IMG/VR virus record: IMGVR_UViG_3300020182_000010
Span: 32,001 to 96,000 of that record
Reading direction: 5' to 3' (one strand)
Source of the DNA: a virus
DNA: 64,000 nt
This document shows, piece after piece, positions 1,280-63,734 of this stretch; the first letter of the stretch is position 1, and every line of letters starts with the position of its first letter. The notes beneath the pieces were generated by a model. That model made no database searches. It was not told where the DNA came from and worked only from the letters and a program-made list of their open reading frames with translations. A program made the position numbers and the translations under genes.

Positions 1280-4123
1280 TCATTTTGATAATAATACAGT
1301 ATTGCCTCCAATAGCAGTAGTATTAATACTCACGTGCTTCTCCCAAACATATGATTTTAAATAATTGGGGCCGCCAGCCTTGGGACCAGTGCCTGATAAT
1401 CCAATACCACCAAAAGGCTGTGTTTCTACAATTGCACCAATTTGATCTCTATTAATATAAATATTGCCAATATTAACATTGTTAATGATTTCTTCATAAA
1501 AAGATGCTATTCTGGAATGAATACTCATTGTTAACCCAAATTTTGTTGTATTGATATAGTCTATAATACTATCAAGTTCATCAACTTCATATTCATAAAC
1601 ATGTAGCAGAGGTCCAAATATTTCTTTATCAAAGTATTTTTTATAATCTGATACTAAATACGCACTTGGTGGAATTGTCAACGGCGGTAATTCAATACCA
1701 TTTCTTGATTTTGTTGCTATAAGTATTTCATTCTCTTCTAATACTGATATTCTATTTTGTATACTTCTAAAAGAATCACCGTCAATTACACGGGTGACAT
1801 CGGTATTTAAATCGTCACTGAATCCCATCTCTACAACACGAATAGCATTGGCCAACATTTTTAAAATATGATTAGAATTATCTTTTTGAACAAATAAAAA
1901 TCTTGTTGCACTACATCTTTGACCTGCACTATCAAATGCACCGAGTATAACATCCTTTACCAATTGTTCAGGTAAACATGTACTATCAGCAATCATACAA
2001 TTGATGCCGCCAGTCTCTGCAATAAACGGAATAATAGGTCCATCACGGTCAGCTAACACACGCTGAATACGCTTCGCAGTTTTATGTGAACCAGTAAATG
2101 TTATACCGTTAATTCGTTCATCTGCTACTGCAATCTCTGCATCTTCAGGATCACTAGGACATAATCTAATAGCATAGTCTGGTATTCCACATTCAAGCAT
2201 GCAACTGATTACAGTCTCGGCAACTCTAATTGTTTGTGGGGCAGATTTTGCTAGTACGGTATTACCAGTTAATAATGCTGCTATGATTGGTCCTACAAAA
2301 ATTGCAAGTGGAAAGTTCCACGGTGCAATAACCATCCACACTCCGTGTGGTTGATATGTAGTTGTATTACTTTCACCTGTATAACCTAATGTAATACCTT
2401 GATTATATAATGTTTCTGCTTGTTCTGCATAATATCTAATAAAATCTACGGCTTCACGAACTTCACTAATAGCATTAGAATATGTCTTATTTGCATTAAT
2501 AACTAGATTACTTGCGGCTTGTTCCATATGATCTTCTAAATGATTTGAATAATCAAGAACTAATTTCTTTCTTTCAGCAAACGTAGTTTTGCTCCATTCT
2601 TTTCTACCTTCGTCTAATATTGTAATACTATCATTCACTGATAATTGTGCAGGTACAATAAATTCGTAACTTTGTCTTCCTACTAGATTCTTAATCCACG
2701 CAGGATCAGTTAAATCATATCCACGACTATTTTTACGATCTGGATATAAATCTTTATATGTTGGTAGATTTTCTCGGTCTTTTTTCACTTCATTGAATGG
2801 ATCTACTAATTGTTGATTAAAAACAAAACTAGTGTTTGCTCCATTTTCTAATAATCTACGAACAAGATATGCAAGTAAATCTTTATATTCACCTACGGGC
2901 GCATACACTCTAACACTTGTATTGTATGTATTTCGTAGATATTCAAATAGTCCATTCCCCATACCATATAATTTTTGAAACTCAAATTCACCTCCTAGGG
3001 TTTCGTTGTAAAAGTATATGGCTGCCACGGTGAATGGATTATGTGTGGCATAAGCAGGTTTGATATACTTGGATAACATAATCTTTCTTGCACATGCTAG
3101 ATAACTTATGTCAGTATATTCCTTTCGTGTAAATACAGGATAGTGTAAGCCTTCTTGTTGTGCTATCTTTATTTCTGTATCCCAATATGCACCTTTGACT
3201 AAACGTATACATATTGATGTATTGAATTCTTCTGCAATATGTTCTAATGTTTCTATTGCCCAAAATGCACGTTTTTGATATGCTTGAACTGCGAATCCAA
3301 TTGTGTTATCTTTAAATTTATGTGTTGATAACAATTCTTCTAATACCATTATACTTATATCTAAACGCGATGCTTCCTCAGCATCAATAAACATTGTGGT
3401 GTTTTTATCTTCGCAAAGTCTGGCAATTGCCGCTAATTTTGGGACTAACTGATGTATTACATCAGCATGATTTCTTAACTCATATCTTGGATGAATAGCA
3501 CTTAGTTTAATACTAATGCTATCTTCAAAGTGTGCTGCAGCCTGTATATATTTTTCGTAGTATGCATTCGCATCTTCCCAATTTGTTGCTGCTTCGCCCA
3601 GCATATCAACTGAGTATGTGTATGATTTATCTACTGCAGTTTTTGCGGCTTCAATGGTTTCAGCCATTACAAATATATTACCCATTCTTTTAACAGATTC
3701 TTTAATAATCTTACGAACTGTGGGCCAACCCAATCTACTAATTAAATTATTATATGCTGCAAAACTCTGGGCATTAGTTAATACTTTGCCACACAAAGTT
3801 GCATAGAAACTATTTTGTGATAAAAGATTCCAATCAGCATTTGTTAGTTTTTCTTTAATTAATTTATCTTGTGTTTTTTTATCAGGTGTCCGTAGTAAAC
3901 ATTCACATAAAGTCATTAACGCAATGCCTTCATTGCCTGATAATTCATATGCAACCATAAGTTGATGTATCATACTAGATTCATTGAATGCAGAATTAAT
4001 TACATTTGATGTTTCTAATATTTCGGCACGGTCTTTTTTTGTAAGTCTTGCGGCAAGCATTAATTTTGGAATTAATTCTAGTTCATTCATTCTATAATAT
4101 ATATTGTGTTGATAAATTTTCAT
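1280..4123 (-). CDS. putA: bifunctional proline dehydrogenase / P5C (glutamate semialdehyde) dehydrogenase
   Basis: PRODH motifs DMLGE, SIKLSA, IDAEE, RLVKGAYWD, ATHN, EFQKLYGMG, YLVRRLLENGAN; ALDH motifs PWNFPL, FTGS, AETGG, SAGQRCSA, EIFGP, QPFGG. Confidence 0.95.
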   Translation of the reverse strand: MKIYQHNIYYRMNELELIPKLMLAARLTKKDRAEILETSNVINSAFNESSMIHQLMVAYELSGNEGIALMTLCECLLRTPDKKTQDKLIKEKLTNADWNLLSQNSFYATLCGKVLTNAQSFAAYNNLISRLGWPTVRKIIKESVKRMGNIFVMAETIEAAKTAVDKSYTYSVDMLGEAATNWEDANAYYEKYIQAAAHFEDSISIKLSAIHPRYELRNHADVIHQLVPKLAAIARLCEDKNTTMFIDAEEASRLDISIMVLEELLSTHKFKDNTIGFAVQAYQKRAFWAIETLEHIAEEFNTSICIRLVKGAYWDTEIKIAQQEGLHYPVFTRKEYTDISYLACARKIMLSKYIKPAYATHNPFTVAAIYFYNETLGGEFEFQKLYGMGNGLFEYLRNTYNTSVRVYAPVGEYKDLLAYLVRRLLENGANTSFVFNQQLVDPFNEVKKDRENLPTYKDLYPDRKNSRGYDLTDPAWIKNLVGRQSYEFIVPAQLSVNDSITILDEGRKEWSKTTFAERKKLVLDYSNHLEDHMEQAASNLVINANKTYSNAISEVREAVDFIRYYAEQAETLYNQGITLGYTGESNTTTYQPHGVWMVIAPWNFPLAIFVGPIIAALLTGNTVLAKSAPQTIRVAETVISCMLECGIPDYAIRLCPSDPEDAEIAVADERINGITFTGSHKTAKRIQRVLADRDGPIIPFIAETGGINCMIADSTCLPEQLVKDVILGAFDSAGQRCSATRFLFVQKDNSNHILKMLANAIRVVEMGFSDDLNTDVTRVIDGDSFRSIQNRISVLEENEILIATKSRNGIELPPLTIPPSAYLVSDYKKYFDKEIFGPLLHVYEYEVDELDSIIDYINTTKFGLTMSIHSRIASFYEEIINNVNIGNIYINRDQIGAIVETQPFGGIGLSGTGPKAGGPNYLKSYVWEKHVSINTTAIGGNTVLLSK

Positions 4124-20260: not shown

Positions 20261-21352
20261 TTACCAACCAATTCTTTCCCAAGGAACATCTTTGTTACCA
20301 AAGTGTCCATATACACAATTTTCACTGTATTTAGTATAGTTAAATAAATCAAATCTATCAATAATTCCTCTAGGAGTTAGATCAATACTTTCTTTAATAA
20401 ACTTTTGAATACTACGATTATGTCCGTTCGAATCAACATAGATACTTGTAGGTTCTTTAATACCGATAGCATAACTAAGTTGTATACTGCACCAATCTGC
20501 CATATTATCTGCCACAACATTCTTGGCAAGCCAACGAGCCATATATGCAGCGGAACGATCTACTTTAGTAGGATCTTTGCCACTAAAAGCACCACCACCG
20601 TGCGGAGCAAATCCGCCATAGGTATCAACAATAATTTTTCGTCCAGTAACACCGGCATCACCATCAGGACCACCTATAACAAAATTGCCAGTGGGATTAA
20701 TATGCCAGATTGTATCGTCATCGATCAAATCTCCCATGGCATGATGTGCGGCTTGTTTTGCAATTATTCTTGCTGCTTCTATTTCATTTTCTGTGTGTTG
20801 AGTACTAATAACAATTTGATCTGCGCGTTTTACTATACCACCTTCATATTGCATACTAACCTGTGATTTTGCATCTGGTCCTAATATACTGTCTAAATTT
20901 CTAACTTCTTTTAATTCTTTAAGAATTTTGTGAGCATAATAAATCGGGGCTGGCATATATGAATCATTATCATTACAAGCATAACCAAACATGATGCCTT
21001 GGTCACCAGCACCGAAGTTATCAGTACCTAAGGCAATATCTGAACTTTGTGAATGAATTTCATTATAGATTTTTAGTTTGTCCCAATGAAATCCCTTCTG
21101 TTCGTAACCGATATCACGAATTTTATTACGCACAATTTCCTTGACAGTATCTTTGCTTACGTTAAAGTTTTTCACTTCGCCAGCCAATGTCACATGATTC
21201 GTAGTCACAAGAGTTTCTACCGCAATACGAGTTGTTTCATCACCATTAGCAAGCCCCGCATCTACTAATGCATCTGAAATTTGATCTGCAACTTTATCTG
21301 GATGACCGTCACTAACACTTTCACTTGTAAAAATATAATTTCCTGGTTTCAT
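20261..21352 (-). CDS. metK: S-adenosylmethionine synthetase
   Basis: FTSESVSDGHPDK, GAGDQG, GPDGDAGVTGRKIIVDTYGG, GGGAFSGKD; likely start MKPGNY. Confidence 0.97.
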   Translation of the reverse strand: MKPGNYIFTSESVSDGHPDKVADQISDALVDAGLANGDETTRIAVETLVTTNHVTLAGEVKNFNVSKDTVKEIVRNKIRDIGYEQKGFHWDKLKIYNEIHSQSSDIALGTDNFGAGDQGIMFGYACNDNDSYMPAPIYYAHKILKELKEVRNLDSILGPDAKSQVSMQYEGGIVKRADQIVISTQHTENEIEAARIIAKQAAHHAMGDLIDDDTIWHINPTGNFVIGGPDGDAGVTGRKIIVDTYGGFAPHGGGAFSGKDPTKVDRSAAYMARWLAKNVVADNMADWCSIQLSYAIGIKEPTSIYVDSNGHNRSIQKFIKESIDLTPRGIIDRFDLFNYTKYSENCVYGHFGNKDVPWERIGW

Positions 21353-21368
21353 TATAATCTTTCTATTT

Positions 21369-21779
21369 TTATTTTTTTGCACTGCATACTAATTCACGCA
21401 GTTTACTTGAACTAAATCTATGATCCCGTTCATTGAAATATATTTCAATATCTCTTTTTTTACAAATATCTCTACCAGTAAAATCTTTATCACGATATTC
21501 TACTCCTAGAATGCGTATATCAATATGCATACCACTAAGAATATCTTCCAAATCTTTTTCGGTTGCATATGGAATAATTTCATCCACATACTTACACGCC
21601 CGTAATTGTAGATATCGTTCGACCACAGTTTGGACGGGTTTATTTTTTGTATCTCTGTCAATTGATGGATCTATTTGCAATCCCACAATTAAATAATCAC
21701 AATGTGATTTTGCTTCTTCTAACATAAGAGTATGTCCTGCATGTAGTAAGTCAAATGTTGATGCTGTGAAACCTATCAT
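21369..21779 (-). CDS. TagD-like cytidylyltransferase
   Basis: FDLLHAGH, LIVGL, KNKP, RDHRFSSS. Confidence 0.9.
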   Translation of the reverse strand: MIGFTASTFDLLHAGHTLMLEEAKSHCDYLIVGLQIDPSIDRDTKNKPVQTVVERYLQLRACKYVDEIIPYATEKDLEDILSGMHIDIRILGVEYRDKDFTGRDICKKRDIEIYFNERDHRFSSSKLRELVCSAKK

Positions 21780-22258: not shown

Positions 22259-23428
22259 CTATATTTTAGTAGTAGAATTTGCATATACTGAATTAAATTG
22301 ATTATTTACTCTAACAAATGTTGTACACTTTGTCAACTGTTTTAATTTTTGAGCGCCCGCATATGTACAAGTTGATCTAATACCTCCAAGAATATCTTGT
22401 AGTGTGCTTTCAACTTCTCCACGATATGGTACGAGAACTTCTCTGCCTTCACTACTTCTATAATTCTTTAGTCCACCAAAGTGCTTTGTGTTGGCTGCGT
22501 CACTGCTCATACCATAAAACTGTACAAATCGCTTTTCTTTATATACTGGTTCATAAAAATTATCATCGGTTTTGATAACTTCATCTGTTTCGTAAATCTT
22601 TGTTATTACTTCGCCACCGCCCTCAACATGTCCAGCAAGCATACCACCTAGCATCACAAAATCAGCACCAGCAGCAAATGCTTTAGCAATATCACCTGGA
22701 CAAGTACAACCGCCGTCAGCGATAATGTGACCACCAAGCCCGTGAGCAGCATCGGCACATTCAATGACCGCTGAGAGTTGCGGATATCCCACCCCAGTTT
22801 GAATACGTGTTGTACAAACACTTCCAGGGCCGATGCCCACTTTAACAATATCTGCACCATTTAAAATTAACTCTTGTGTTTGATCCGCAGTGACAACATT
22901 GCCAGCAATGATTACAATATTAGGATATAATAGTCTAAAGTCGGCAACAAAATTAGTAAATCGTTCACTGTAACCATTAGCCACATCAATGCATACATAT
23001 TTTAAATTAGAATTAACGTGTGTATGCACACTTTTAAATTTTTTTAAATCTTGTTCACCAATCCCAATACTCATTGCAATATGTTCTTTATATTTTGAAT
23101 TTGAATTGAAAAATTCAATTAATTCATCAGAACTATATGTTTTAACCAAGCAAGTAAAAACGCCTTGTTCTGCTAAAGTAGTTGCCATTGCAAATGTACC
23201 AACTCCATCCATATTTGCTGCCATAATTGGTATACCATCAAAATCGGATTCAACATATGGACCCGCTGGATATCCAGAAGGTAGAACATCAATGTTTAAT
23301 AACGGAGAATAGTTTCGAAAAATAAATTCTCTGTTTAAATCAACATCTTTTCGTGAACTAAGTATTGATCTTTTAGGCCGAATAAGAACATCACTATAAT
23401 CAAGTAATACTTCATTTTCGATACGCAT
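22259..23428 (-). CDS. guaC: GMP reductase
   Basis: [51 protein letters not shown]. Confidence 0.95.
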
Positions 23429-44463: not shown

Positions 44464-45870
44464 TTAATATTTCATATCTTCATCAATTGGTCTCACTTCA
44501 TTCGATATCAAAACAGTATTTACTAATGTTCTTACGCCAAATCCAACTGCCCCGCCCGGAACAACATCGTTGCCGCTTTCATTCCATGCCATGCCAGCAA
44601 TATCCAAATGTGCCCAATTACGATCTTTATCTACAAAACGATATAAGAATTCGGCAGCAGTAGTTGATCCACCACCTTTACCACCAATATTTTTCATATC
44701 TGCAATCTTCGAATCAATCATTTTATTCCAGTTTTTGCCCATCGGCATACGCCAATATGATTCACCGGCTAACTCACCACTTTCAATAATATCATTTCCA
44801 AACTCAGTAGAATTTGTAAATAGTCCAGCCATTTCGTGTCCCAATGATACGATGATGGCACCAGTTAGAGTTGCAAGATCAATAATACGATCTGGATCAT
44901 ATTCTGTTTGTACATAAGTCAATATATCGGCTAATACCAATCTACCTTCGGCATCTGTATTTAAGTTTTCAACTGTTTGTCCACTTAGTGATGTAACAAT
45001 ATCGCCGGGCTTAATCGCATTACCATCTGGCATGTTCTCTACTAGTCCAACAATTCCGACTACATTGGCTTGAATATTTTGTGCGGCGATGGCATGCATT
45101 GCTCCTACAACCGCAGCACTACCACCCATATCAAATTTCATATCACCCATGCCAGCACTTGGTTTGATAGAAATTCCACCAGTATCAAAGGTTACACCTT
45201 TGCCCACCAATGCAATCGGTCGTTCATCATCTCCGCCATTCCATTCCATTACAACAACATATGAATCTCTACGTGATCCTTGCCCCACACTTAGTAGCAA
45301 ATCAAATCCCATTGCTTTCAATTGTGCCTCGTGATATACTTTTACTGTTACACCCAACGGCATAAGTTCAGTACTAATAATATTTGCATATGTTTCAGGA
45401 TATAAAACATTACCTGGTTCTGAAACAAGATCACGTGCAAACGCAACACTTTTATGTATTGATACTTCTGGTACTGCATCGATGTGAACTGTTAGAGTTT
45501 CTGTATCTTTTTTAGATTTATATTTGTCAAACGTATATAATGCCAGATGTGCACCTTCATATATTGATTCATTAAAATCATTGTTAATTTCAAAGTACAA
45601 ATTATCAACACGACTTTTCCATTGTTTTACTAACTTACCACCAAAGTTACGCCAATCATTTCCAGTTACTGTATCTGTTTTTACAACAATAATCGCATCT
45701 ACATTAATCTTAGATGGAAAAGATATCACCACTTCTCCAGTATCTTTTGTTGCTAGTGATTTTAGTCCGCACACACTAGATACTACTCCACCTGATTTTT
45801 TATCAAGTGCTTTATATTCCTTGGAATCATACAATACTACAATTGCAGAGTTGGGTTCATAAGAACTCAT
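44464..45870 (-). CDS. pepA: M17 leucyl aminopeptidase
   Basis: VGKGVTFDTGG, MKFDMGG, NTDAEGRL, ATLTGA, HLDIAG. Confidence 0.95.
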   Translation of the reverse strand: MSSYEPNSAIVVLYDSKEYKALDKKSGGVVSSVCGLKSLATKDTGEVVISFPSKINVDAIIVVKTDTVTGNDWRNFGGKLVKQWKSRVDNLYFEINNDFNESIYEGAHLALYTFDKYKSKKDTETLTVHIDAVPEVSIHKSVAFARDLVSEPGNVLYPETYANIISTELMPLGVTVKVYHEAQLKAMGFDLLLSVGQGSRRDSYVVVMEWNGGDDERPIALVGKGVTFDTGGISIKPSAGMGDMKFDMGGSAAVVGAMHAIAAQNIQANVVGIVGLVENMPDGNAIKPGDIVTSLSGQTVENLNTDAEGRLVLADILTYVQTEYDPDRIIDLATLTGAIIVSLGHEMAGLFTNSTEFGNDIIESGELAGESYWRMPMGKNWNKMIDSKIADMKNIGGKGGGSTTAAEFLYRFVDKDRNWAHLDIAGMAWNESGNDVVPGGAVGFGVRTLVNTVLISNEVRPIDEDMKY

Positions 45871-50241: not shown

Positions 50242-51504
50242 TTATGTGTTTTGCTTAACCTTTTCTTCTTCATTGAACACTAACATTGGTTCTTTGTTTC
50301 CTAAAATGAATTCGTCTGTTATATGCACAGAACGAAGTCCTTGTTTTGCCAATTTTGGCAACTTAAATTGTATTTGTAAAAGTGATTTTTCAATTACACT
50401 TCTCAAACCTCGAGCACCTGTTTTATCAGTTGTTGCTTTTTCAGCAATACAATCAAGAGCAGAATCAGAAATAATTAACTCTACGCCATCAAATCTAAAC
50501 AATTTTTCAAATTGTGCAACAATACTATTTTTAGGCTCAGTTAATACTTGTACTAACTGACTTTTAGTAAGAGAATCAAGTCCAACAATAATTGGAAATC
50601 TGCCCATAAATTCTGGGATGACTCCATATTTTATTACATCTTGTGCTTCTACTTGCTCACGGATATTTATCTTTTTAGTTGATTTATCATAGATAACTGC
50701 ACCAAATCCGATGCCTGCATTTGATGTTACTCTACGTTCAATAATTTTATCAATACCAACAAAGGCGCCGCCTACTATAAACAATATTTTACTTGTATCA
50801 ATTTCAATCATATCTGATCCAGGATGCTTACGCCCACCACTAGGTGGAACACGAACAATTGTACCTTCTACAATTTTAAGCAATGCTTGCTGAACACCTT
50901 CACCACTAACGTCTTTTGTAATAGAAACATTTTCACCTTTTTTGGCTTTTTTATCAATTTCATCAATATATACAATACCTAATTCTGCTTTTTTAACATC
51001 AAAATCTGCAGCAATAAGTAATTTCTGGACTACGTTTTCTACATCGTCGCCTACATATCCACTTTCAGTTAATGAAGTTGCGTCAATTTGTGCAAATGGA
51101 ACATCTAAAAATTTAGCAACTGTTTTTGCAAGTAATGTTTTGCCAGTTCCCGATGGTCCCATAACCATTACATTAGACTTGTCTAATTCTATACCATCTG
51201 AATCATCAGAGTTAATACGTTTATAATGATTATATACTGCAACACTAAGCACTTCTTTTGCTTCGTCTTGTCCAATAACAAATGCATCTAAAAATTCTTT
51301 GATATCTTCTGGGCCTGGAATTGACTCTATACTATCACCACTAGCACTAGTAATAGTCAATTTTTCTTTGGGGTCATGAATTATTTCATAGCACAAGTCA
51401 ATGCACTCATTGCAAATGAACTGATTTGGTCCAGCAATGAGTGTTTTAACTATATCTTTTTCTTTGTTACAAAATGAACAAGTGTAATTTTTAGTATCTG
51501 TCAA
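50242..51504 (-). CDS. clpX: ATP-dependent Clp protease ATPase
   Basis: CSFC...CNEC zinc finger, [23 protein letters not shown] loop, GARGLR; TTG start. Confidence 0.97.
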
Positions 51505-56682: not shown

Positions 56683-57309
56683 ATGATACAGTATATTCAT
56701 CAATATGGCGATCAAGTAGCACTACAATCAAATCTAAACTGTGATCATTTGTTACAAGAATTAAGTCAGTTTGATGATGAATGGTCACAATATAATGTAT
56801 TAAAACCAACAATTAGACGACAAGGATTATGCGTATTAAATGAACGAGGAAATGTTGGGCCTGGCCCTGCACTTAATTCTCTTAGAGAATGGAATAAAAA
56901 ATACAATACTACTTTTTCTGAATCTGATTTTAATAAGCCTACCGAAGTATATAATAATAGTTTACAACTACAATCTATACTTGGAGAAATTCTTCCATAT
57001 TGTGTTAGAACCCATTTTTTAAGATTGGGACCAGGAGGATTTTTCCCACCACACCGAGATCATATTGGGAAAGAGCAATCTACATTTAGATTAATTGTTC
57101 CGATTAAGGCATTCAATCCACCAGATGCACGATTTATGATAGAAGATAGATCATTGTATTGGGAAGAGGGTAGAATGTATGCAGTAAACACAACCAAAGA
57201 ACACACATTGTTTAATGCTAGTAATCAAGATAGTATCTGGTTAGTAATTAATGCTAAAGTATGCGATGAAACTATTAGATTTGTGTCAAAAAATTTAAAA
57301 AGTAGATAA
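56683..57309 (+). CDS. Asp/Asn beta-hydroxylase-like Fe/2OG oxygenase
   Basis: GGFFPPHRD...EGRMY..NTTKEH..FN; ATAAATA upstream. Confidence 0.75.
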   Translation: MIQYIHQYGDQVALQSNLNCDHLLQELSQFDDEWSQYNVLKPTIRRQGLCVLNERGNVGPGPALNSLREWNKKYNTTFSESDFNKPTEVYNNSLQLQSILGEILPYCVRTHFLRLGPGGFFPPHRDHIGKEQSTFRLIVPIKAFNPPDARFMIEDRSLYWEEGRMYAVNTTKEHTLFNASNQDSIWLVINAKVCDETIRFVSKNLKSR

Positions 57310-57804
57310 GTTAGATTGATGTAACTCATTAATTGTTTCTACATACGACATACTTATTACTATTCTGTTGTGTGGACTTTTAGAGTTATCTATCCTATGT
57401 GGAATGTCTACTCTCCAGCATTTTGGAGTTTGTAAATCTATAGTTTCTAAAACATTGTTACTTTCCATAGACTCCATATACTGAAATACACTAGTTTCAT
57501 GTACATTAACAGGAATATTAATTGCAGTGATCCGTTGTCTTATACCGCTTGCGTCTGCTTTATCATCAACGTGTGTTGCACATACACTATTTTTTGGTAC
57601 TGTAATAATTGCAGCATAACTAGGAGATATTGGCAGTGCATCAAAAATGTATGATAATTTGCTCATTTCCGATTGTGTCATAAGATGCGGTATTATTGTC
57701 CACGATGCATAAAGTGGGTTAGTTGGATTGTTACTTATATGAGTTATCCATTCTATATCGTCGGGACGAATAGATGGAACGTTTTTAATTTCAAACCATT
57801 TCAT
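57295..57804 (-). CDS. Fe/2OG oxygenase-like protein
   Basis: HVD...AINIP...PH..N....R. Confidence 0.7.
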   Translation of the reverse strand: MKWFEIKNVPSIRPDDIEWITHISNNPTNPLYASWTIIPHLMTQSEMSKLSYIFDALPISPSYAAIITVPKNSVCATHVDDKADASGIRQRITAINIPVNVHETSVFQYMESMESNNVLETIDLQTPKCWRVDIPHRIDNSKSPHNRIVISMSYVETINELHQSNLSTF

Positions 57805-58283
57805 TTTTGTATCCTTTGTATATCTCCAATAGCGTCTGGCTCTCGGGTATGAACTGTAATTGCTATTCGTGTATTAGTTAACTCAGTAATATTATGATAT
57901 GTACTTACTGTGATATTATGCCAAACATTGTTTGGAAAGATTTCTCTTTCAATTTCATTTAAATCATCATCATACCATACAGTATTAACATTTCCGCCTG
58001 TATTGATAATGTAATTGTAACAGTTTGTTCTGCCAAAGTCTTTATGTATAGGTAAGTCCTGTGTTATTAATTGGAATGATATATCTACATCATTATCAAA
58101 ATATGGTTGTAAAAACGATTTTATCTCTTGTGGCGCAGTATGCAATGAGTACTTAGGCACTACATTATTTGGAGGTTCTACTCCGCTAAAATCTCTCGGG
58201 ATTTTTCGTATTTCATCTTCTGTGAACTTATCGATGATATCATTTGGAATTTGTGGAATATTCGGACAGTAACGATATAACAT
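57801..58283 (-). CDS. Fe/2OG oxygenase-like protein
   Basis: PIHKD...NY...YH.I.....R. Confidence 0.7.
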   Translation of the reverse strand: MLYRYCPNIPQIPNDIIDKFTEDEIRKIPRDFSGVEPPNNVVPKYSLHTAPQEIKSFLQPYFDNDVDISFQLITQDLPIHKDFGRTNCYNYIINTGGNVNTVWYDDDLNEIEREIFPNNVWHNITVSTYHNITELTNTRIAITVHTREPDAIGDIQRIQK

Positions 58284-58293
58284 TAATTTACCT

Positions 58294-58893
58294 TTATACT
58301 AAGTGTTGAGTAAGTTCTCTGAAAAACTTCCAATCTGTTTTTTTATTATTAAATTTGAAAATCATTATTGCTCTTTGATGCGATTGTGGCAGTGGATTAA
58401 AAACACTATGCCATTTTTGATTATTAAATAGAACTGGAGTATCAGTTAATGCAAATTCATATGCGTGTGCTAATTCTCCGCTACTATACGCTTCACTTTT
58501 TTTCATTTTCTCGCCTATCACTTCGTCTATAGGTTCCCAGAAACTAGTAGTAATTTGTTCATTGCATCCAAAGACAGGGATATTTATACTACATGGATAA
58601 TTAATATTATCAGGATGATTGTCTCTATGGATAGGAATAAATTGTTTACTTCTGCGTTGGTCATGAAAATATCCAATCCACACACGGTCTATTACCATAT
58701 ATTCGTGTAGTTCCTTTGGTATTAAATGAAGTGCGGAATCTGTCATCGGTTCACTATTTAAAAACACTTGTTTCTTTTCATCATAGTGCTTATGAAATAT
58801 ATGATTTGCGACAGTAGTATCAATATTCAACGGAACAACATAGTCACTAATACTGTATTGAGTGTTATGTGTAATTGATTTCATTAAATCCAA
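58294..58893 (-). CDS. Fe/2OG oxygenase-like protein
   Basis: PIHRD...SINIP...WHSV.N....R. Confidence 0.7.
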   Translation of the reverse strand: MDLMKSITHNTQYSISDYVVPLNIDTTVANHIFHKHYDEKKQVFLNSEPMTDSALHLIPKELHEYMVIDRVWIGYFHDQRRSKQFIPIHRDNHPDNINYPCSINIPVFGCNEQITTSFWEPIDEVIGEKMKKSEAYSSGELAHAYEFALTDTPVLFNNQKWHSVFNPLPQSHQRAIMIFKFNNKKTDWKFFRELTQHLV

Positions 58894-59339
58894 TCCTTCG
58901 GAGTATCAATAATATCTTTTACTATATCTCCACACATCTGATGTGTTTTATAAACTGCCCATTTTTGTTTCTCATTAATAGTTTGCTGCACCAGACTGTT
59001 GAAGTCTACAGTTGATCCAGTAATTTTGTCTAAAGAAGATTTAACATATTTTTGTTCTCGGACGCTGCTAACAATTTTATAATTATTTTTAATAAATTCT
59101 AGTATTTCAGCATCTAGTAAATTCAATGTATGCCAATGGCCATGAAGAATATGTTTTTTATTTAAGACTACTTCTCGTATATTATATTCATTGCCATGTA
59201 AAAATTCAGAGGTATGTAATACCCCCATCGCGGTTGGTTTATTTAACAATGTCGAATAATGTTTTGCTAAACTGCGACTTGCAGTTCTTGGAAAACTGAT
59301 TACCGCTATATTACAAATAGTGTTTGACATATCATACAT
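58884..59339 (-). CDS. sulfotransferase-like protein
   Basis: SFPRTASRSL resembles the PAPS-binding loop; SSVRE. Confidence 0.5.
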   Translation of the reverse strand: MYDMSNTICNIAVISFPRTASRSLAKHYSTLLNKPTAMGVLHTSEFLHGNEYNIREVVLNKKHILHGHWHTLNLLDAEILEFIKNNYKIVSSVREQKYVKSSLDKITGSTVDFNSLVQQTINEKQKWAVYKTHQMCGDIVKDIIDTPKDWI

Positions 59340-60060
59340 TTCCCGGTGATACGTTGTTTAAAATAAAAGAATCTACCGCATATTTTGCAAAATCTTCTCC
59401 GTAATGAAACGTATGTTTAGTAGAAAAATTGTTATCCTTCGCATAATTAGTATAGGCAAATGGTATGCTATTAAGTTTTAATATGCTTTTAGATTCTAGA
59501 ATCCAAGACAAATCATTCCAATTTGAACTCAACGAATGACTTTTTTCTTCGTCTGTGAGCATGGCATCTTCTATATCTGAAAACATAAACTTGCATGGTA
59601 TGTTTTCATTGTCACAGAATGATTTTAATAATATTATATGTTGAAGTAAATCTGTCTTATCTTGTATTGAATTTTGTATATATTCAAAATACCCAAGTGC
59701 TGCTGCATTGAAACCTCTACCCTGATTTAATTTTTCATACCATAAAGATAGTGTAACTGGGTTATTAAGTGTTTTTAAAAACAATTCACGCCTATGTGAA
59801 TATGTCATCATAAACACTGCGTTGGGTTTCTTGTTTTGTTGAATTAAGTTTTTTATACCGATTATTGCTTTTCGTGTGATTAAATTGTTCGATGCTCCTG
59901 GTCTAGAATCGTTAATGACCGATACCCCCATCTGTTCTCCTAACAAAGCCGGCCACGAAAATTTGCTGGTTTTGAAATTATCGACAAATGTATTACCCAC
60001 ATCATCCATTCCAAATCCTTGTGTATGAGAACAGCCACCTGCATATAAAATATTTTCCAT
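59332..60060 (-). CDS. SGNH-hydrolase-like protein
   Basis: GCSHTQG, SWP, GASN, C-terminal His; likely start MENILY at 60060. Confidence 0.6.
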   Translation of the reverse strand: MENILYAGGCSHTQGFGMDDVGNTFVDNFKTSKFSWPALLGEQMGVSVINDSRPGASNNLITRKAIIGIKNLIQQNKKPNAVFMMTYSHRRELFLKTLNNPVTLSLWYEKLNQGRGFNAAALGYFEYIQNSIQDKTDLLQHIILLKSFCDNENIPCKFMFSDIEDAMLTDEEKSHSLSSNWNDLSWILESKSILKLNSIPFAYTNYAKDNNFSTKHTFHYGEDFAKYAVDSFILNNVSPGNV

Positions 60061-60653
60061 TAGATATTTATTGTTTTTCGCATATTTTCGCATAGTCTTA
60101 TATCTTTAAGTGGTATGTTTGGAATTTCAAAATGTAAGCACAATCTATTTTCCGTAACATTTTTAACGCCGTGCCGTTTTGTAATGTTTAGAAATGTCGG
60201 AGAAGTTATTTGATACTCTCCGCCATCTTCATAATACGTGATTGATGACGAAATCCCCCACAGAGGTATCATCAGAACCGTATTTTTTCTATATGGAAAA
60301 TCTGAGTGTGTAGGCACATCTTCTCCTGCATGTTGAAGGAAAAATGAAACATCACCAATAACGATGTCGTTGTCAATTTTTTCTGATAACTGTTTTATTA
60401 TATTTGCAATTGTAGGATGAGTAGTGTCACACTTTGAAACAAAATCAGTACGCTTGTGTACTTTTTTTGTAATCGATTTTTTCAAATCTTTAATCGTATT
60501 ACCGATTACGTTTATCCCTGTATTTTTACAGAATTCATCTTTGTGATTAATATCAATATCATCAATATCATATGATCGCAGAGAGTTATAATAAGAAGTT
60601 AATACATCCACATCATAATCTAAATCTATGACTAGTACTTCACGATCATCCAT
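60060..60653 (-). CDS. Fe/2OG oxygenase-like protein
   Basis: PTHSD...HGV.N....R. Confidence 0.7.
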   Translation of the reverse strand: MDDREVLVIDLDYDVDVLTSYYNSLRSYDIDDIDINHKDEFCKNTGINVIGNTIKDLKKSITKKVHKRTDFVSKCDTTHPTIANIIKQLSEKIDNDIVIGDVSFFLQHAGEDVPTHSDFPYRKNTVLMIPLWGISSSITYYEDGGEYQITSPTFLNITKRHGVKNVTENRLCLHFEIPNIPLKDIRLCENMRKTINI

Positions 60654-60722: not shown

Positions 60723-61400
60723 TTATATTATAAACTGTGTTCGCCATAACATACGTTCACCCTCGAATGCTACTCTTTTATGGATCATTTTTAGATTGTC
60801 CCAGATTAATATCTCGTTATCCTGCCATTCATGCATATATGCATTTGCTTCTACCCATTCTTTAATAGGACGTAAGTCTATTTCATTATTGCGCAATGTG
60901 TTTATACTACAATATAGTATATCTTCACCAGTGACATGATGCTTAATATTAAATGGTCGCTTTATTTTTTGTTTCTCTAGTAATCGTAGTTGTCTATCAG
61001 TAAAACATTCGCCATGCAAATGTATAGGAGGGTAGTATTCACCTATAGAATCTTTATACAGTTCTCTAAGTTCAAGTGGTGCATTACTCATATTACAGAA
61101 CCAAGTTGGTGAAAGATGAGCATTTTTTACATTGTACAATATTGTACCAAAGTAGTTTCCTCTACCATAACTCCAATCATTATGCCAGTCTACATCGCCG
61201 GTATTGAACAATCCATTATTACTTAACTCTTGCACAGTACGATTGTCATTAATCACATGCTTGTCTGTGATTAATGGTTTTCCTAATTCACTGACAATAT
61301 ACTCGAAATCTGTTAATGTTATTGAACTATTTAATGAGACTTTCACAAGACCATTCGTCATAAGATCCTGCTTGATGGTCTCTATATTCAATTGTTTCAT
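60723..61400 (-). CDS. TauD/TfdA-family dioxygenase
   Basis: WHND...TWF...HEW....LIWDN....HKR..F.GER...R. Confidence 0.88.
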   Translation of the reverse strand: MKQLNIETIKQDLMTNGLVKVSLNSSITLTDFEYIVSELGKPLITDKHVINDNRTVQELSNNGLFNTGDVDWHNDWSYGRGNYFGTILYNVKNAHLSPTWFCNMSNAPLELRELYKDSIGEYYPPIHLHGECFTDRQLRLLEKQKIKRPFNIKHHVTGEDILYCSINTLRNNEIDLRPIKEWVEANAYMHEWQDNEILIWDNLKMIHKRVAFEGERMLWRTQFII

Positions 61401-62262
61401 CTACCTTTTCCTTTACTTCCTCGTCTCTATACCAAATACCTGCTCTCCACAATTCGCGGTCGCCAGTATATGCTTCTCTTTTATGTAGACTGTGATGTTG
61501 GTCACTAAAACAGATATCATAATTATTCCATTCGTGTTCATACACATATTTTTCATCTTGTGTATGCTTTTTCAGTTTATAATATAAGTTATGCTGTGCA
61601 TCTTTAGAAATTCCACTAAATCCTCGAATAACAGTCCAAGGAAAATATAGGCCTTCCTTATTATTGATAGGGTGAGTTGTGACTAAATCTTTTCTTGGTG
61701 TTTGTTTTTCGAAACTGTTTTGTCCATCTATATCTTTGAACTCCATCATAGTTTGTTCATCACTAAAAATTCTCTTGTAATACATTTGCTCAAGTTTCAA
61801 CTTAGCATTATATGTTACGATTTTAGACTTTATGTTACGAAGAATGTCTTTTGTATTATCATCCAAATCTGCAAAAGCCGTTTGACTATCAGAGAAGAAC
61901 GTATTTCCACCACTCTCTGCATTTTGATGCATGTACATAACTACAACATCATCATGTCCCTTACGATTCATTCCAGCACTATGCCACTCTAATTCACCGT
62001 CTTCTTCACCGCTAAATAATCCATTTTTTCTAACTTTAATAAGTTCGCCATGTCCCGCGACATTTCCTTTGACTTTTGTATTTTGTGATACCACCTCACC
62101 AATTGTTTTATAAAATGATACTAGAGTTTCTGGTGGTACTGGATCATTATTTCTCACTACCACTACACGGCAATCACCTATTAGTTCTCTAATTTTATCT
62201 GCATCGTTTTCATAATCGCATTCAGTCACAATTGCTGCAAATTTATTTTTTTCTACAATCAT
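61327..62262 (-). CDS. TauD-family Fe/2OG enzyme with HxA motif (candidate halogenase)
   Basis: WHSAG at the HxD position, GGNTFF, HP, HEW...D....LHKR...DRELWR. Confidence 0.8.
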   Translation of the reverse strand: MIVEKNKFAAIVTECDYENDADKIRELIGDCRVVVVRNNDPVPPETLVSFYKTIGEVVSQNTKVKGNVAGHGELIKVRKNGLFSGEEDGELEWHSAGMNRKGHDDVVVMYMHQNAESGGNTFFSDSQTAFADLDDNTKDILRNIKSKIVTYNAKLKLEQMYYKRIFSDEQTMMEFKDIDGQNSFEKQTPRKDLVTTHPINNKEGLYFPWTVIRGFSGISKDAQHNLYYKLKKHTQDEKYVYEHEWNNYDICFSDQHHSLHKREAYTGDRELWRAGIWYRDEEVKEKVDETIEYRDHQAGSYDEWSCESLIK

Positions 62263-62815
62263 TTTTCACTCTTTCTAACCCTATATTTATACAGTCTTTC
62301 GTCAATGGAAGCCAAGTTATATTTTGTTCACAACTACTATCTCCGTTGCATACATAAAACTGGTCTGTTTCCATGATCCAGTCTGGCCATTGCATTTTGT
62401 TGTGCAAGAAGTATTTAAATCCATTAATACCGAACTTACCTTCTCTACTCATAAATGCATAATCAAATTTAAGATTGCCAACTAATTCTATCTGCTGTTC
62501 AATCATTTGTTTTGTATATTCAATATCGTTAACCGCAAATCTATAATCCGAAGATTTAATAAATCTATTTAGAACCCTACATCCATTTCCATAAAATTGT
62601 TTTCTATGTAAAACAGAAGAAAACCCCAATATTTTACCAGATTGCGTTTCATACGTTGATGCTCCAACCCAATCATCAATGTTTAACCGCTTCATTGTAT
62701 AATTATATTTTAGATTGTCTTGAAAATTTGATTGTGTAATAAACTGTTTTATGCTTTCAATATATGATTCCCAATTATTATCGGCAGAATTTATTGTTTT
62801 AATAGTTAAATTCAT
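62243..62815 (-). CDS. GNAT-like hypothetical protein
   Basis: ILGFS...RVLNRF....YR...AFMSR pattern. Confidence 0.45.
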   Translation of the reverse strand: MNLTIKTINSADNNWESYIESIKQFITQSNFQDNLKYNYTMKRLNIDDWVGASTYETQSGKILGFSSVLHRKQFYGNGCRVLNRFIKSSDYRFAVNDIEYTKQMIEQQIELVGNLKFDYAFMSREGKFGINGFKYFLHNKMQWPDWIMETDQFYVCNGDSSCEQNITWLPLTKDCINIGLERVKNDCRKK

Positions 62816-63734
62816 TTTGCTTCACATGTTCAAAGAATGGCGCAATTGTCCAATTCTGAGTCAACCGTCCTCTACTAGTGTTATCATGATCAATAACACC
62901 GTCATCGTCAATTTCCCAATCAATTAATCTTACGTATACTGGTCCTGCTTGTGTTTCATACTCAAACATCCAGGATGAAAGAGTTTCACCACTTTGTGGT
63001 CCTGCCGCAACAACTCCCGCTGCAGTCTTATATATGTCTTTTTCATTAATACCTAGTTGTAATTTTGCTATATCTTTAAGTTCTTGTATATTATATGAAG
63101 AATTTTCCATATATCTACCAATTTGTCCCACACTTTTCATTCGAAGTACGGGACGAATTCTATTATATGGCGGAGTAGTATTAAAATCTATTCCACTATT
63201 GCAGGCTAGTTCACCAAATAATTCTATTTGTCTTTTTAATGTATGTTCGTTTACATTTTTTGCAATGATTGTACCAGTGTTCACTGGCAGTCTCGCATCA
63301 AAAACATTTTTCAATGCTCTAACTTTTACCGTTGACCAATTGCCTTCATCTAATACTTTGTATACATTATCATCATCTGCGCCGTTCATACTAAGCAATA
63401 GTAATCTGAGGCCTGCATCTTTTAGATTGGATGTGTAACTCTTATTTGCTAACTTTAGTCCGTTGGTAGTTAGACTAGGGCGATGTCCTAATCTTTTTGT
63501 AGTTGCAATAATCTCACATATATCCTCTCTCATAGTAGGTTCTGCTCCTATTAATCTGATATAGGTACGAGCAGGTAATCGTTTGATAATGTCAAATAAT
63601 TTATTTTTATCAATATCTGGAATATCACGATTTGGAATATAACAGTTAGCACACTCCATGTTACATCGATGAGTTAGATCAACTACAATGTTACTGAATG
63701 TATTATTTTCTGGTTCTAATTCGTAATAATTCAT
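62799..63734 (-). CDS. radical SAM enzyme
   Basis: CNMECANC (CxxxCxxC), GAEPT, TTNG. Confidence 0.9.
   Translation of the reverse strand: MNYYELEPENNTFSNIVVDLTHRCNMECANCYIPNRDIPDIDKNKLFDIIKRLPARTYIRLIGAEPTMREDICEIIATTKRLGHRPSLTTNGLKLANKSYTSNLKDAGLRLLLLSMNGADDDNVYKVLDEGNWSTVKVRALKNVFDARLPVNTGTIIAKNVNEHTLKRQIELFGELACNSGIDFNTTPPYNRIRPVLRMKSVGQIGRYMENSSYNIQELKDIAKLQLGINEKDIYKTAAGVVAAGPQSGETLSSWMFEYETQAGPVYVRLIDWEIDDDGVIDHDNTSRGRLTQNWTIAPFFEHVKQNEFNY

Follow-up and report, generated by a model that had tools for sequence, protein, structure and literature searches.

Background

The closest described relatives of the protein discussed here, TauD_A, are the TauD/TfdA-type dioxygenases (TauD, AtsK, TfdA/AAD-2, RdpA/AAD-1, PlaO1 and ScoE/Rv0097; Pfam family PF02668), with which it has in common the whole fold, a W-H-x-[ligand] strand, a distal His some 166 residues further on, a Thr/Arg 2OG site and a C-terminal RxxxR. 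It differs from these enzymes in that Ala takes the place of Asp, that the sequence identity is low (14-21%), that it has a clade-specific loop (GMNR..DD) and that its clade turned up in no DNA but that of viruses and metagenomes. In the case of TauD, the D101A replacement abolished hydroxylation but yielded no halogenase, and the corresponding replacement was no more successful in P4H (PMC2767507).

The second group that invites comparison is formed by the Fe(II)/2OG radical halogenases (SyrB2, CytC3, WelO5, BesD, AdeV and DAH), which like TauD_A combine two His with Ala/Gly and an intact 2OG site, but which show no detectable kinship with it past the common double-stranded beta-helix. WelO5, BesD, AdeV and DAH all do without a carboxylate ligand. 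The same ligand is absent in SyrB2 and CytC3 (PMC2767507), and HxG/A is taken as the mark of non-haem iron halogenases and used as such in halogenase mining (PMC12871659). The second-sphere residues that decide between halogenation and hydroxylation are family-specific (bioRxiv 10.1101/2024.09.19.613983). In AdeV the two His (H192/H250) lie 58 residues apart and the 2OG site is R263/S265 (PMC12766721), whereas the His pair of TauD_A is 166 residues apart and its predicted 2OG site is of the TauD-type Thr/Arg kind, differences which imply that TauD_A, if it is a halogenase, would have an independent origin.

Precedent for halogenase genes in marine phages is provided by the flavin-dependent, PrnA-like halogenases of cyanophages (PMC3037559, PMC2984593), although these differ from the proposed TauD_A activity in fold and cofactor, and perform electrophilic aromatic instead of radical aliphatic halogenation. 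Moreover, pelagimyophages and cyanomyophages possess hypervariable 'host recognition cluster' islands that combine tail-fibre genes with many tailoring enzymes (Zaragoza-Solas et al. 2020, PMC7029224), and in which radical SAM gene cassettes are gained and lost between close relatives (PMC7029224). The DNA analysed here is like these islands in that it has a fibre protein (Mtd_N/laminin-G) and a run of oxygenase-like genes; it differs in its TauD genes, since the description of the islands (PMC7029224) is without TauD, taurine (0 occurrences), an HxA motif or a unit composed of radical SAM, GNAT, TauD and TauD genes (rSAM-GNAT-TauD-TauD). A search of the literature likewise turned up neither a phage Fe/2OG halogenase nor one of the TauD type, and no such cassette.

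By mapping the conservation and the genetic context of TauD_A, which is encoded on a 64,000-nucleotide stretch of viral DNA (hereafter the window), we arrive at a tentative proposal, of which we are more doubtful than confident: TauD_A may found a virus-restricted family of radical Fe/2OG halogenases on the TauD scaffold, by which abundant marine phages, with the help of a radical SAM enzyme, a GNAT-fold protein and a hydroxylase paralogue, would produce a small molecule that bears chlorine or bromine, or halogenate a component of the virion or of the host surface during infection.

Results and discussion

The source genome

The window is part of a 155-kb virus record of IMG/VR (42% complete according to CheckV) and has a GC content of 32-39%. 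An earlier reading, made from the sequence only, had taken the DNA to be that of a phage, which agrees with the viral nature of the record and with the phage traits of the window, i.e. a fibre-like Mtd_N/laminin-G protein and PHROG matches to tail and baseplate proteins. Searches of the GenBank phage records, from which those close to the source genome may have been absent, gave no match by tblastn with TauD_A or by megablast with 8 kb, and neither did a search for gp23 in the 155-kb record, although the control genomes gave none either. The window encodes several host-like proteins:

1280-4123: PutA (full-length, proline dehydrogenase and aldehyde dehydrogenase)
20261-21382: SAM synthetase
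22259-23428: protein of the IMPDH/GMP-reductase type
44464-45870: M17 leucyl aminopeptidase
50242-51504: ClpX

For a phage fragment this set of host-like metabolic and proteostasis genes is unusually rich.

A TauD fold with Ala in the ligand column

The gene for TauD_A and the positions that are relevant for its predicted active site are the following:

61327..62262, (-) strand: TauD_A, TauD-fold Fe(II)/2OG enzyme (predicted) with an HxA metal motif, 311 aa (Pfam PF02668, 5.2e-31)
61972..61986, (-) strand: W93-H94-S95-A96-G97; H94 is the putative proximal Fe ligand and A96 replaces the Asp/Glu ligand
61900..61902, (-) strand: T121 (GGNTFF), which aligns with the 2OG-binding Thr of TauD-type enzymes
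61483..61485, (-) strand: H260 (SLHKR), putative distal Fe ligand, from alignment and conservation
61444..61458, (-) strand: R269..R273 (RELWR), from alignment to TfdA

The score against PF02668 (109 bits) is above the curated cut-off (27 bits). The codons of the motif are TGG for W93 (61984-61986), CAT for H94 (61981-61983), AGT for S95 (61978-61980), GCT for A96 (61975-61977) and GGA for G97 (61972-61974). The sequence-only reading had recognised W-H-S-A-G correctly but had placed it at 61975-61983, a span that covers H-S-A only. In a HMMER alignment with the solved TfdA-type enzyme AAD-2 (5bke), the W-H-S-A of TauD_A falls under W-H-S-D, and SLH260KR..R269ELWR273 falls under the distal His and the two Arg. 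Because of this alignment of WHSA with the WHSD of TfdA/AAD-2, A96 can be assigned to the column of the carboxylate ligand. TauD_A therefore has H94-S-A96...H260, with an invariant Ala on the Asp column of the TauD family. At the same time, it has the elements of a 2OG C5-carboxylate site, namely T121 and an Arg (R269) within the usual ~9-11 residues past the distal His. Two His, an Ala for the carboxylate and an intact 2OG site together form the motif of the Fe(II)/2OG radical halogenases. We take R269 to be the counterpart of the Arg that binds the 2OG C5-carboxylate, and R273 that of the substrate-anchoring Arg of TauD-type enzymes (R266 and R270 in TauD, respectively). The earlier observation that the distal His (in LHKR) and the C-terminal Arg residues are retained holds as well, H260, R269 and R273 being present and nearly invariant.

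The AF2 model of TauD_A (pLDDT 87.5, pTM 0.86, with residues 286-311 below 50) superimposes by VIA on PlaO1, TauD, AtsK, RdpA and ScoE/Rv0097 with Z 24-27 (25-27 for PlaO1, TauD, AtsK and RdpA) and an rmsd of 2-3 A over 230-260 residues, i.e. nearly the full chain. The closest solved structures, by VIA and among the Foldseek matches listed, are all TauD-type oxygenases with HxD, and no halogenase is present among the 50 best VIA matches or the Foldseek matches listed. PHROGs has no family for TauD_A, for its short paralogue TauD_D or for the small neighbours.

The open reading frame of TauD_A extends 74 nt into that of TauD_D (61327-61400), and the length of the protein varies among homologues between 268 and 311 aa through its tail (residues 286-311), which is disordered in the model. 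In view of this disorder and variable length, the overlap probably reflects translational coupling and not a functional tail.

Conservation of the Ala state

A homologue search of 5.8 billion proteins with TauD_A recovered 73 homologues with 49-88% identity. H94 and A96 are invariant in all 73, and H260, T121, R269 and R273 are nearly so, so that the alignment of homologues proposed in the sequence-only reading does find Ala conserved in the ligand column together with the two His and the 2OG residues. Across 20 distinct loci the codon for Ala96 is GCT (nine times), GCA (nine times) or GCC (twice). The use of three synonymous codons implies that the Ala is kept by selection and that neither a recent common ancestor nor an error in base calling accounts for it; to judge from the codons and the alignment, A96 is neither a matter of chance nor a sequencing error. 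The close homologues come from 25 IMG/VR loci and from Tara and other marine assemblies. Among 185,579 prokaryote genomes (one per species), the best match has only 28% identity and the distant matches have WHSD or WHSN. As far as the collections searched show, the main Ala clade is thus apparently restricted to viruses, i.e. found in viral or metagenome DNA only.

When 1.84 billion cluster representatives were searched with a profile, the Ala state was seen to extend to much more distant proteins, down to about E 1e-40 (P0074-P0079, P0081 and P0083). For the trees the ligand column was omitted from the alignment (FastTree, 126 rows; IQ-TREE in quick mode, 62 rows). They recover an Ala clade of 18 rows, of which 16 have Ala, one Cys and one Glu, with a FastTree support of 97 and an SH-aLRT of 100 (IQ-TREE), and with long internal branches. 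Other small Ala lineages are found outside this clade (P0137/P0196 and P0092), and a pair of viral contigs (L034/L035) encodes proteins that also have WHSA at about 25% identity to TauD_A. On another viral contig (L027:4417-6199) there are two tandem TauD genes with HxA (WHNA) that are 47-48% identical to TauD_A, with no radical SAM, GNAT or HxD partner near.

In the Ala clade, and in no other group, the loop after the Ala is conserved (G97-M98-N99-R100, then D104-D105). Similarly, D105, M98, N99, R100, Y248 and H256/H257 are conserved in the clade and mostly different in the relatives with HxN and HxD, and the conservation of M98 and M111 is confined to it, while R269/R273 are invariant wherever the alignment column is filled. 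E90/E92, the acidic residues closest to the motif, were considered as an Ala-specific substitute carboxylate and rejected: relatives with HxD and HxN have them just as often, and therefore they are no compensation for the Ala.

Ligand plasticity and the Asn sister group

In the wider family the ligand column is far less uniform. Among the 150 best representatives it holds Asn in 61 and Asp/Glu in 44, with a few His, Gly, Cys and Ile, and Ala accounts for 19 of the full-length rows. At least 13-26 changes in this column are required on the trees, with many switches between Asn and Asp. The sequence-only reading had named variable residues at this site as evidence against a halogenase; such variability is indeed found in the wider family, but not within the 73 homologues. 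The sister clades of the Ala clade are mostly of the Asn type (W-H-x-N-G; relatives P0082-P0215 and loci L042, L046, L049, L053 and L055), and some of the Asn forms are bacterial (MAGs of Bdellovibrionales, Binatia and Thermodesulfobacteriota). We know of no description of a 2OG enzyme with two His and one Asn. The frequent switching between Asn and Asp, and the presence of Glu and Cys inside the Ala clade, imply that the third ligand is unusually dispensable in the wider family, with the consequence that a ligand supplied by the substrate fits as well as a halide.

In one Bdellovibrionales MAG (L037:5342-10575) the gene for an HxN relative is flanked on one side by genes for small unknown proteins of a signal-peptide-like kind and on the other by one for a B12-binding radical SAM enzyme of 672 aa. 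This locus has no neighbour in common with the phage cassette described below and provides no clue to the substrate.

A conserved four-gene cassette

TauD_A is encoded in a cassette together with three other genes:

62799..63734, (-) strand: radical SAM enzyme of 311 aa, whose gene is the first conserved one in the cassette (Pfam PF04055, 1.1e-14)
62243..62815, (-) strand: p190, GNAT-fold protein, 190 aa (AF2 model with pLDDT 86.4, and Foldseek)
61327..62262, (-) strand: TauD_A
60723..61400, (-) strand: TauD_D, short TauD paralogue, 225 aa (Pfam PF02668, 7.7e-15; 56 bits versus a cut-off of 27)

The radical SAM protein scores 55 bits against a cut-off of 29.5 and has the CxxxCxxC motif (CNMECANC at residues 24-31, with C24/C28/C31), while cysteines for auxiliary clusters are absent. 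NCBIfam and PDB searches place its core nearest to TrsS/MoaA/Tes/PqqE/BlsE, but no NCBIfam equivalog was matched at its cut-off, only the generic core, and none of the 1165 metagenome homologues is informatively named. In the case of p190, no match to Pfam, PHROG or NCBIfam was found; a Foldseek search of the PDB gave 425 matches at E<=0.001, of which all those listed are GNAT acyltransferases (best match 6e-7, TM ~0.5). The Pfam match of TauD_D covers model positions 68-266 only, i.e. the first ~67 positions are missing. Its motifs are canonical (W72-H-N-D, H207-K-R and R216-x3-R220), in line with the W-H-N-D that had been read from the sequence for this adjacent paralogue, and WH[NH]D together with HKR..RxxxR is kept in 19 of 19 cassette loci.

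The conservation of the cassette was determined by tblastn of the window proteins against 22 distinct viral loci with a TauD_A gene. A radical SAM gene with 49-73% identity is found ~1.4 kb upstream of TauD_A in 19 of the 22 loci, p190 ~0.5 kb upstream in 18, and TauD_D ~0.8 kb downstream in 19 (20 before a cross-hit in L027 was set aside). In these 19 loci the order and strand of the genes for the radical SAM enzyme, the GNAT-fold protein, TauD (HxA) and short TauD (HxD) are constant. This gene order strongly supports the suggestion, made from the window sequence, that TauD_A works together with a radical SAM enzyme and a paralogue of the hydroxylase type. The flanking genes vary with the phage backbone: DnaB/ThyX in one set of loci, carbamoyltransferase/NTP-transferase/HAD in another. 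The more deeply branching proteins of the Ala clade, P0077 for example, are encoded by genes that are solitary among other phage oxygenase genes. The radical SAM enzyme is far better conserved than its partners in the cassette (64-73% identity across most cassette loci). As a small unit of fixed composition, the rSAM-GNAT-TauD-TauD cassette offers something testable within the tailoring islands of marine phages, of which little is understood.

Proposed halogenation and the alternatives

On the basis of the sequence, a halogenase is the best single reading of TauD_A, at a probability that we put somewhat short of even. TauD_A would then be catalytically competent, with the Fe held by two protein ligands only (H94 and H260) and the 2OG bound via T121 and R269. 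A96 would leave open the site usually filled by the Asp carboxylate, and this site would most likely be taken by a halide from the host cytoplasm. Activation of O2 would give a cis-halo-oxo-Fe(IV) species that could abstract one of the substrate's hydrogens, after which Cl or Br would be returned to the aliphatic carbon. The enzyme would act within the translationally coupled cassette of radical SAM enzyme, GNAT-fold acyltransferase, TauD_A and TauD_D, with TauD_D as the presumed hydroxylase-type partner. To judge from the conservation of E90/E92 and R273, the substrate may be small, with an amine and an anionic group.

Several considerations argue for this reading. H94, H260, T121, R269 and R273 have been kept over deep divergence, which makes a dead enzyme unlikely. 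As TauD D101A is inactive, a normal hydroxylase would not be expected to keep the Ala for so long; the third site must then be filled otherwise, and by precedent this would be by a halide. The loop specific to the Ala clade would suit a rebuilt pocket for an anion or substrate, and the pairing of HxA and HxD TauD proteins (19/22 loci) was counted in favour of a halogenase as well. The motif is the only evidence specific to halogenases. Against this reading count the closest solved structures, all of them HxD oxygenases, the plasticity of the ligand column, and the D-to-A replacements in TauD and P4H, from which no halogenase resulted. The interpretation offered in the sequence-only reading is partly supported, and it is from one motif that we infer halogenation.

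Rather less likely, in our estimate, is that TauD_A is a 2-His Fe/2OG oxygenase that obtains the third ligand from its substrate (a carboxylate, sulfonate, phosphate or thiolate) or from an anion other than a halide, and that hydroxylates, desaturates or cyclises. The plasticity of the ligand column in the wider family is easiest to grasp if a protein ligand is not essential, and the nearest structures are all oxygenases. TauD-type enzymes like TauD and AtsK, moreover, bind anionic substrates beside the iron via the Arg equivalent to R273, which also favours a substrate ligand. Nevertheless, the Ala is fixed in the clade and does not drift between Ala, Asn and Asp as in the neighbours, and from a limited literature search we know of no characterised natural HxA/G Fe/2OG enzyme that works with a ligand from the substrate, which counts against this explanation. 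The third ligand could also be supplied by another residue of the Ala clade (D104/D105, H257, M98 or Y248) in an otherwise ordinary oxygenase, which we consider quite unlikely. Most of these residues are among those with clade-specific conservation, and the TauD fold can function with a ligand that is relocated or an amide: TauD H255Q keeps 81% of its activity (PMC2767507), so that the iron there accepts an amide as ligand. Yet a His at column 257 and an acid at column 104 are also present in relatives with a full HxD triad, in which they are unlikely to be ligands, and rearranged triads were inactive in P4H (PMC2767507).

That TauD_A is a non-catalytic or regulatory subunit, for instance a 2OG-binding or substrate-presenting one in a heteromer with the HxD paralogue, is in our estimate slightly less likely again. 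The genes of TauD_A and TauD_D are indeed adjacent and overlap in the cassette loci (by 13-74 nt), TauD_D is without the N-terminal ~67 positions of the fold, and the inactivity of TauD D101A would be in keeping with such a role; on the other hand, both His and all 2OG-binding residues are nearly invariant, which is not usual in pseudoenzymes, and the deeper members of the Ala clade (e.g. P0077) occur without the paralogue. A switch of metal, for example to a copper-type His2-Met site that involves M98 or M111, is suggested by the conservation of these two Met in the Ala clade only, but is highly improbable given the intact set of 2OG-binding Thr/Arg and the absence of a known precedent in the TauD fold.

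If TauD_A is a halogenase, it would to our knowledge be the first on a TauD-type scaffold, and perhaps the first non-haem iron halogenase of a virus. Halogenation by TauD_A would imply organohalogen chemistry by abundant ocean phages, and C-H halogenation biocatalysis would gain a new template that is compact and looks soluble. Should TauD_A turn out not to be a halogenase, its clade would still be of use as a deep group of 2OG enzymes that operate on two protein ligands, and the same holds for the Asn-bearing sister group.

Surroundings of the cassette

Just past the end of the window (L036:2080-2180) there is a terminator-like GC-rich hairpin followed by a T run, and then TATAAATA. This box has the look of a late promoter of the T4 type and is located 43 nt upstream of a 111-aa ORF, which in turn precedes the radical SAM gene; the octamer shows no enrichment in the window, with 9 copies versus 14 expected. 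The 111-aa ORF was considered as a conserved precursor or carrier and rejected, as none of the other cassette loci has a homologue of it and the genes upstream are different in every case. In the vicinity of TauD_A there is no gene for a carrier protein or a natural-product scaffold.

Downstream of the cassette lie four genes for small proteins, without a significant family match, that recur to a variable extent in the other loci (tblastn):

58884-59339, (-) strand: p151, found in 10/22 loci
58294-58893, (-) strand: p199, found in 11/22 loci
57801-58283, (-) strand: p160, not found in other loci
57295-57804, (-) strand: p169, found in 12/22 loci

The region at 56683-60653 of the window encodes a run of small proteins, without a family match, in which H-x-D motifs can be seen by eye (PPHRDH, THVDD, IHRDN, IHKDF and THSDF). 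The same region also encodes an SGNH-like protein of 253 aa (GGCSHTQG) and a protein of 151 aa in which FPRTASRS resembles a P-loop or a sulfotransferase motif.
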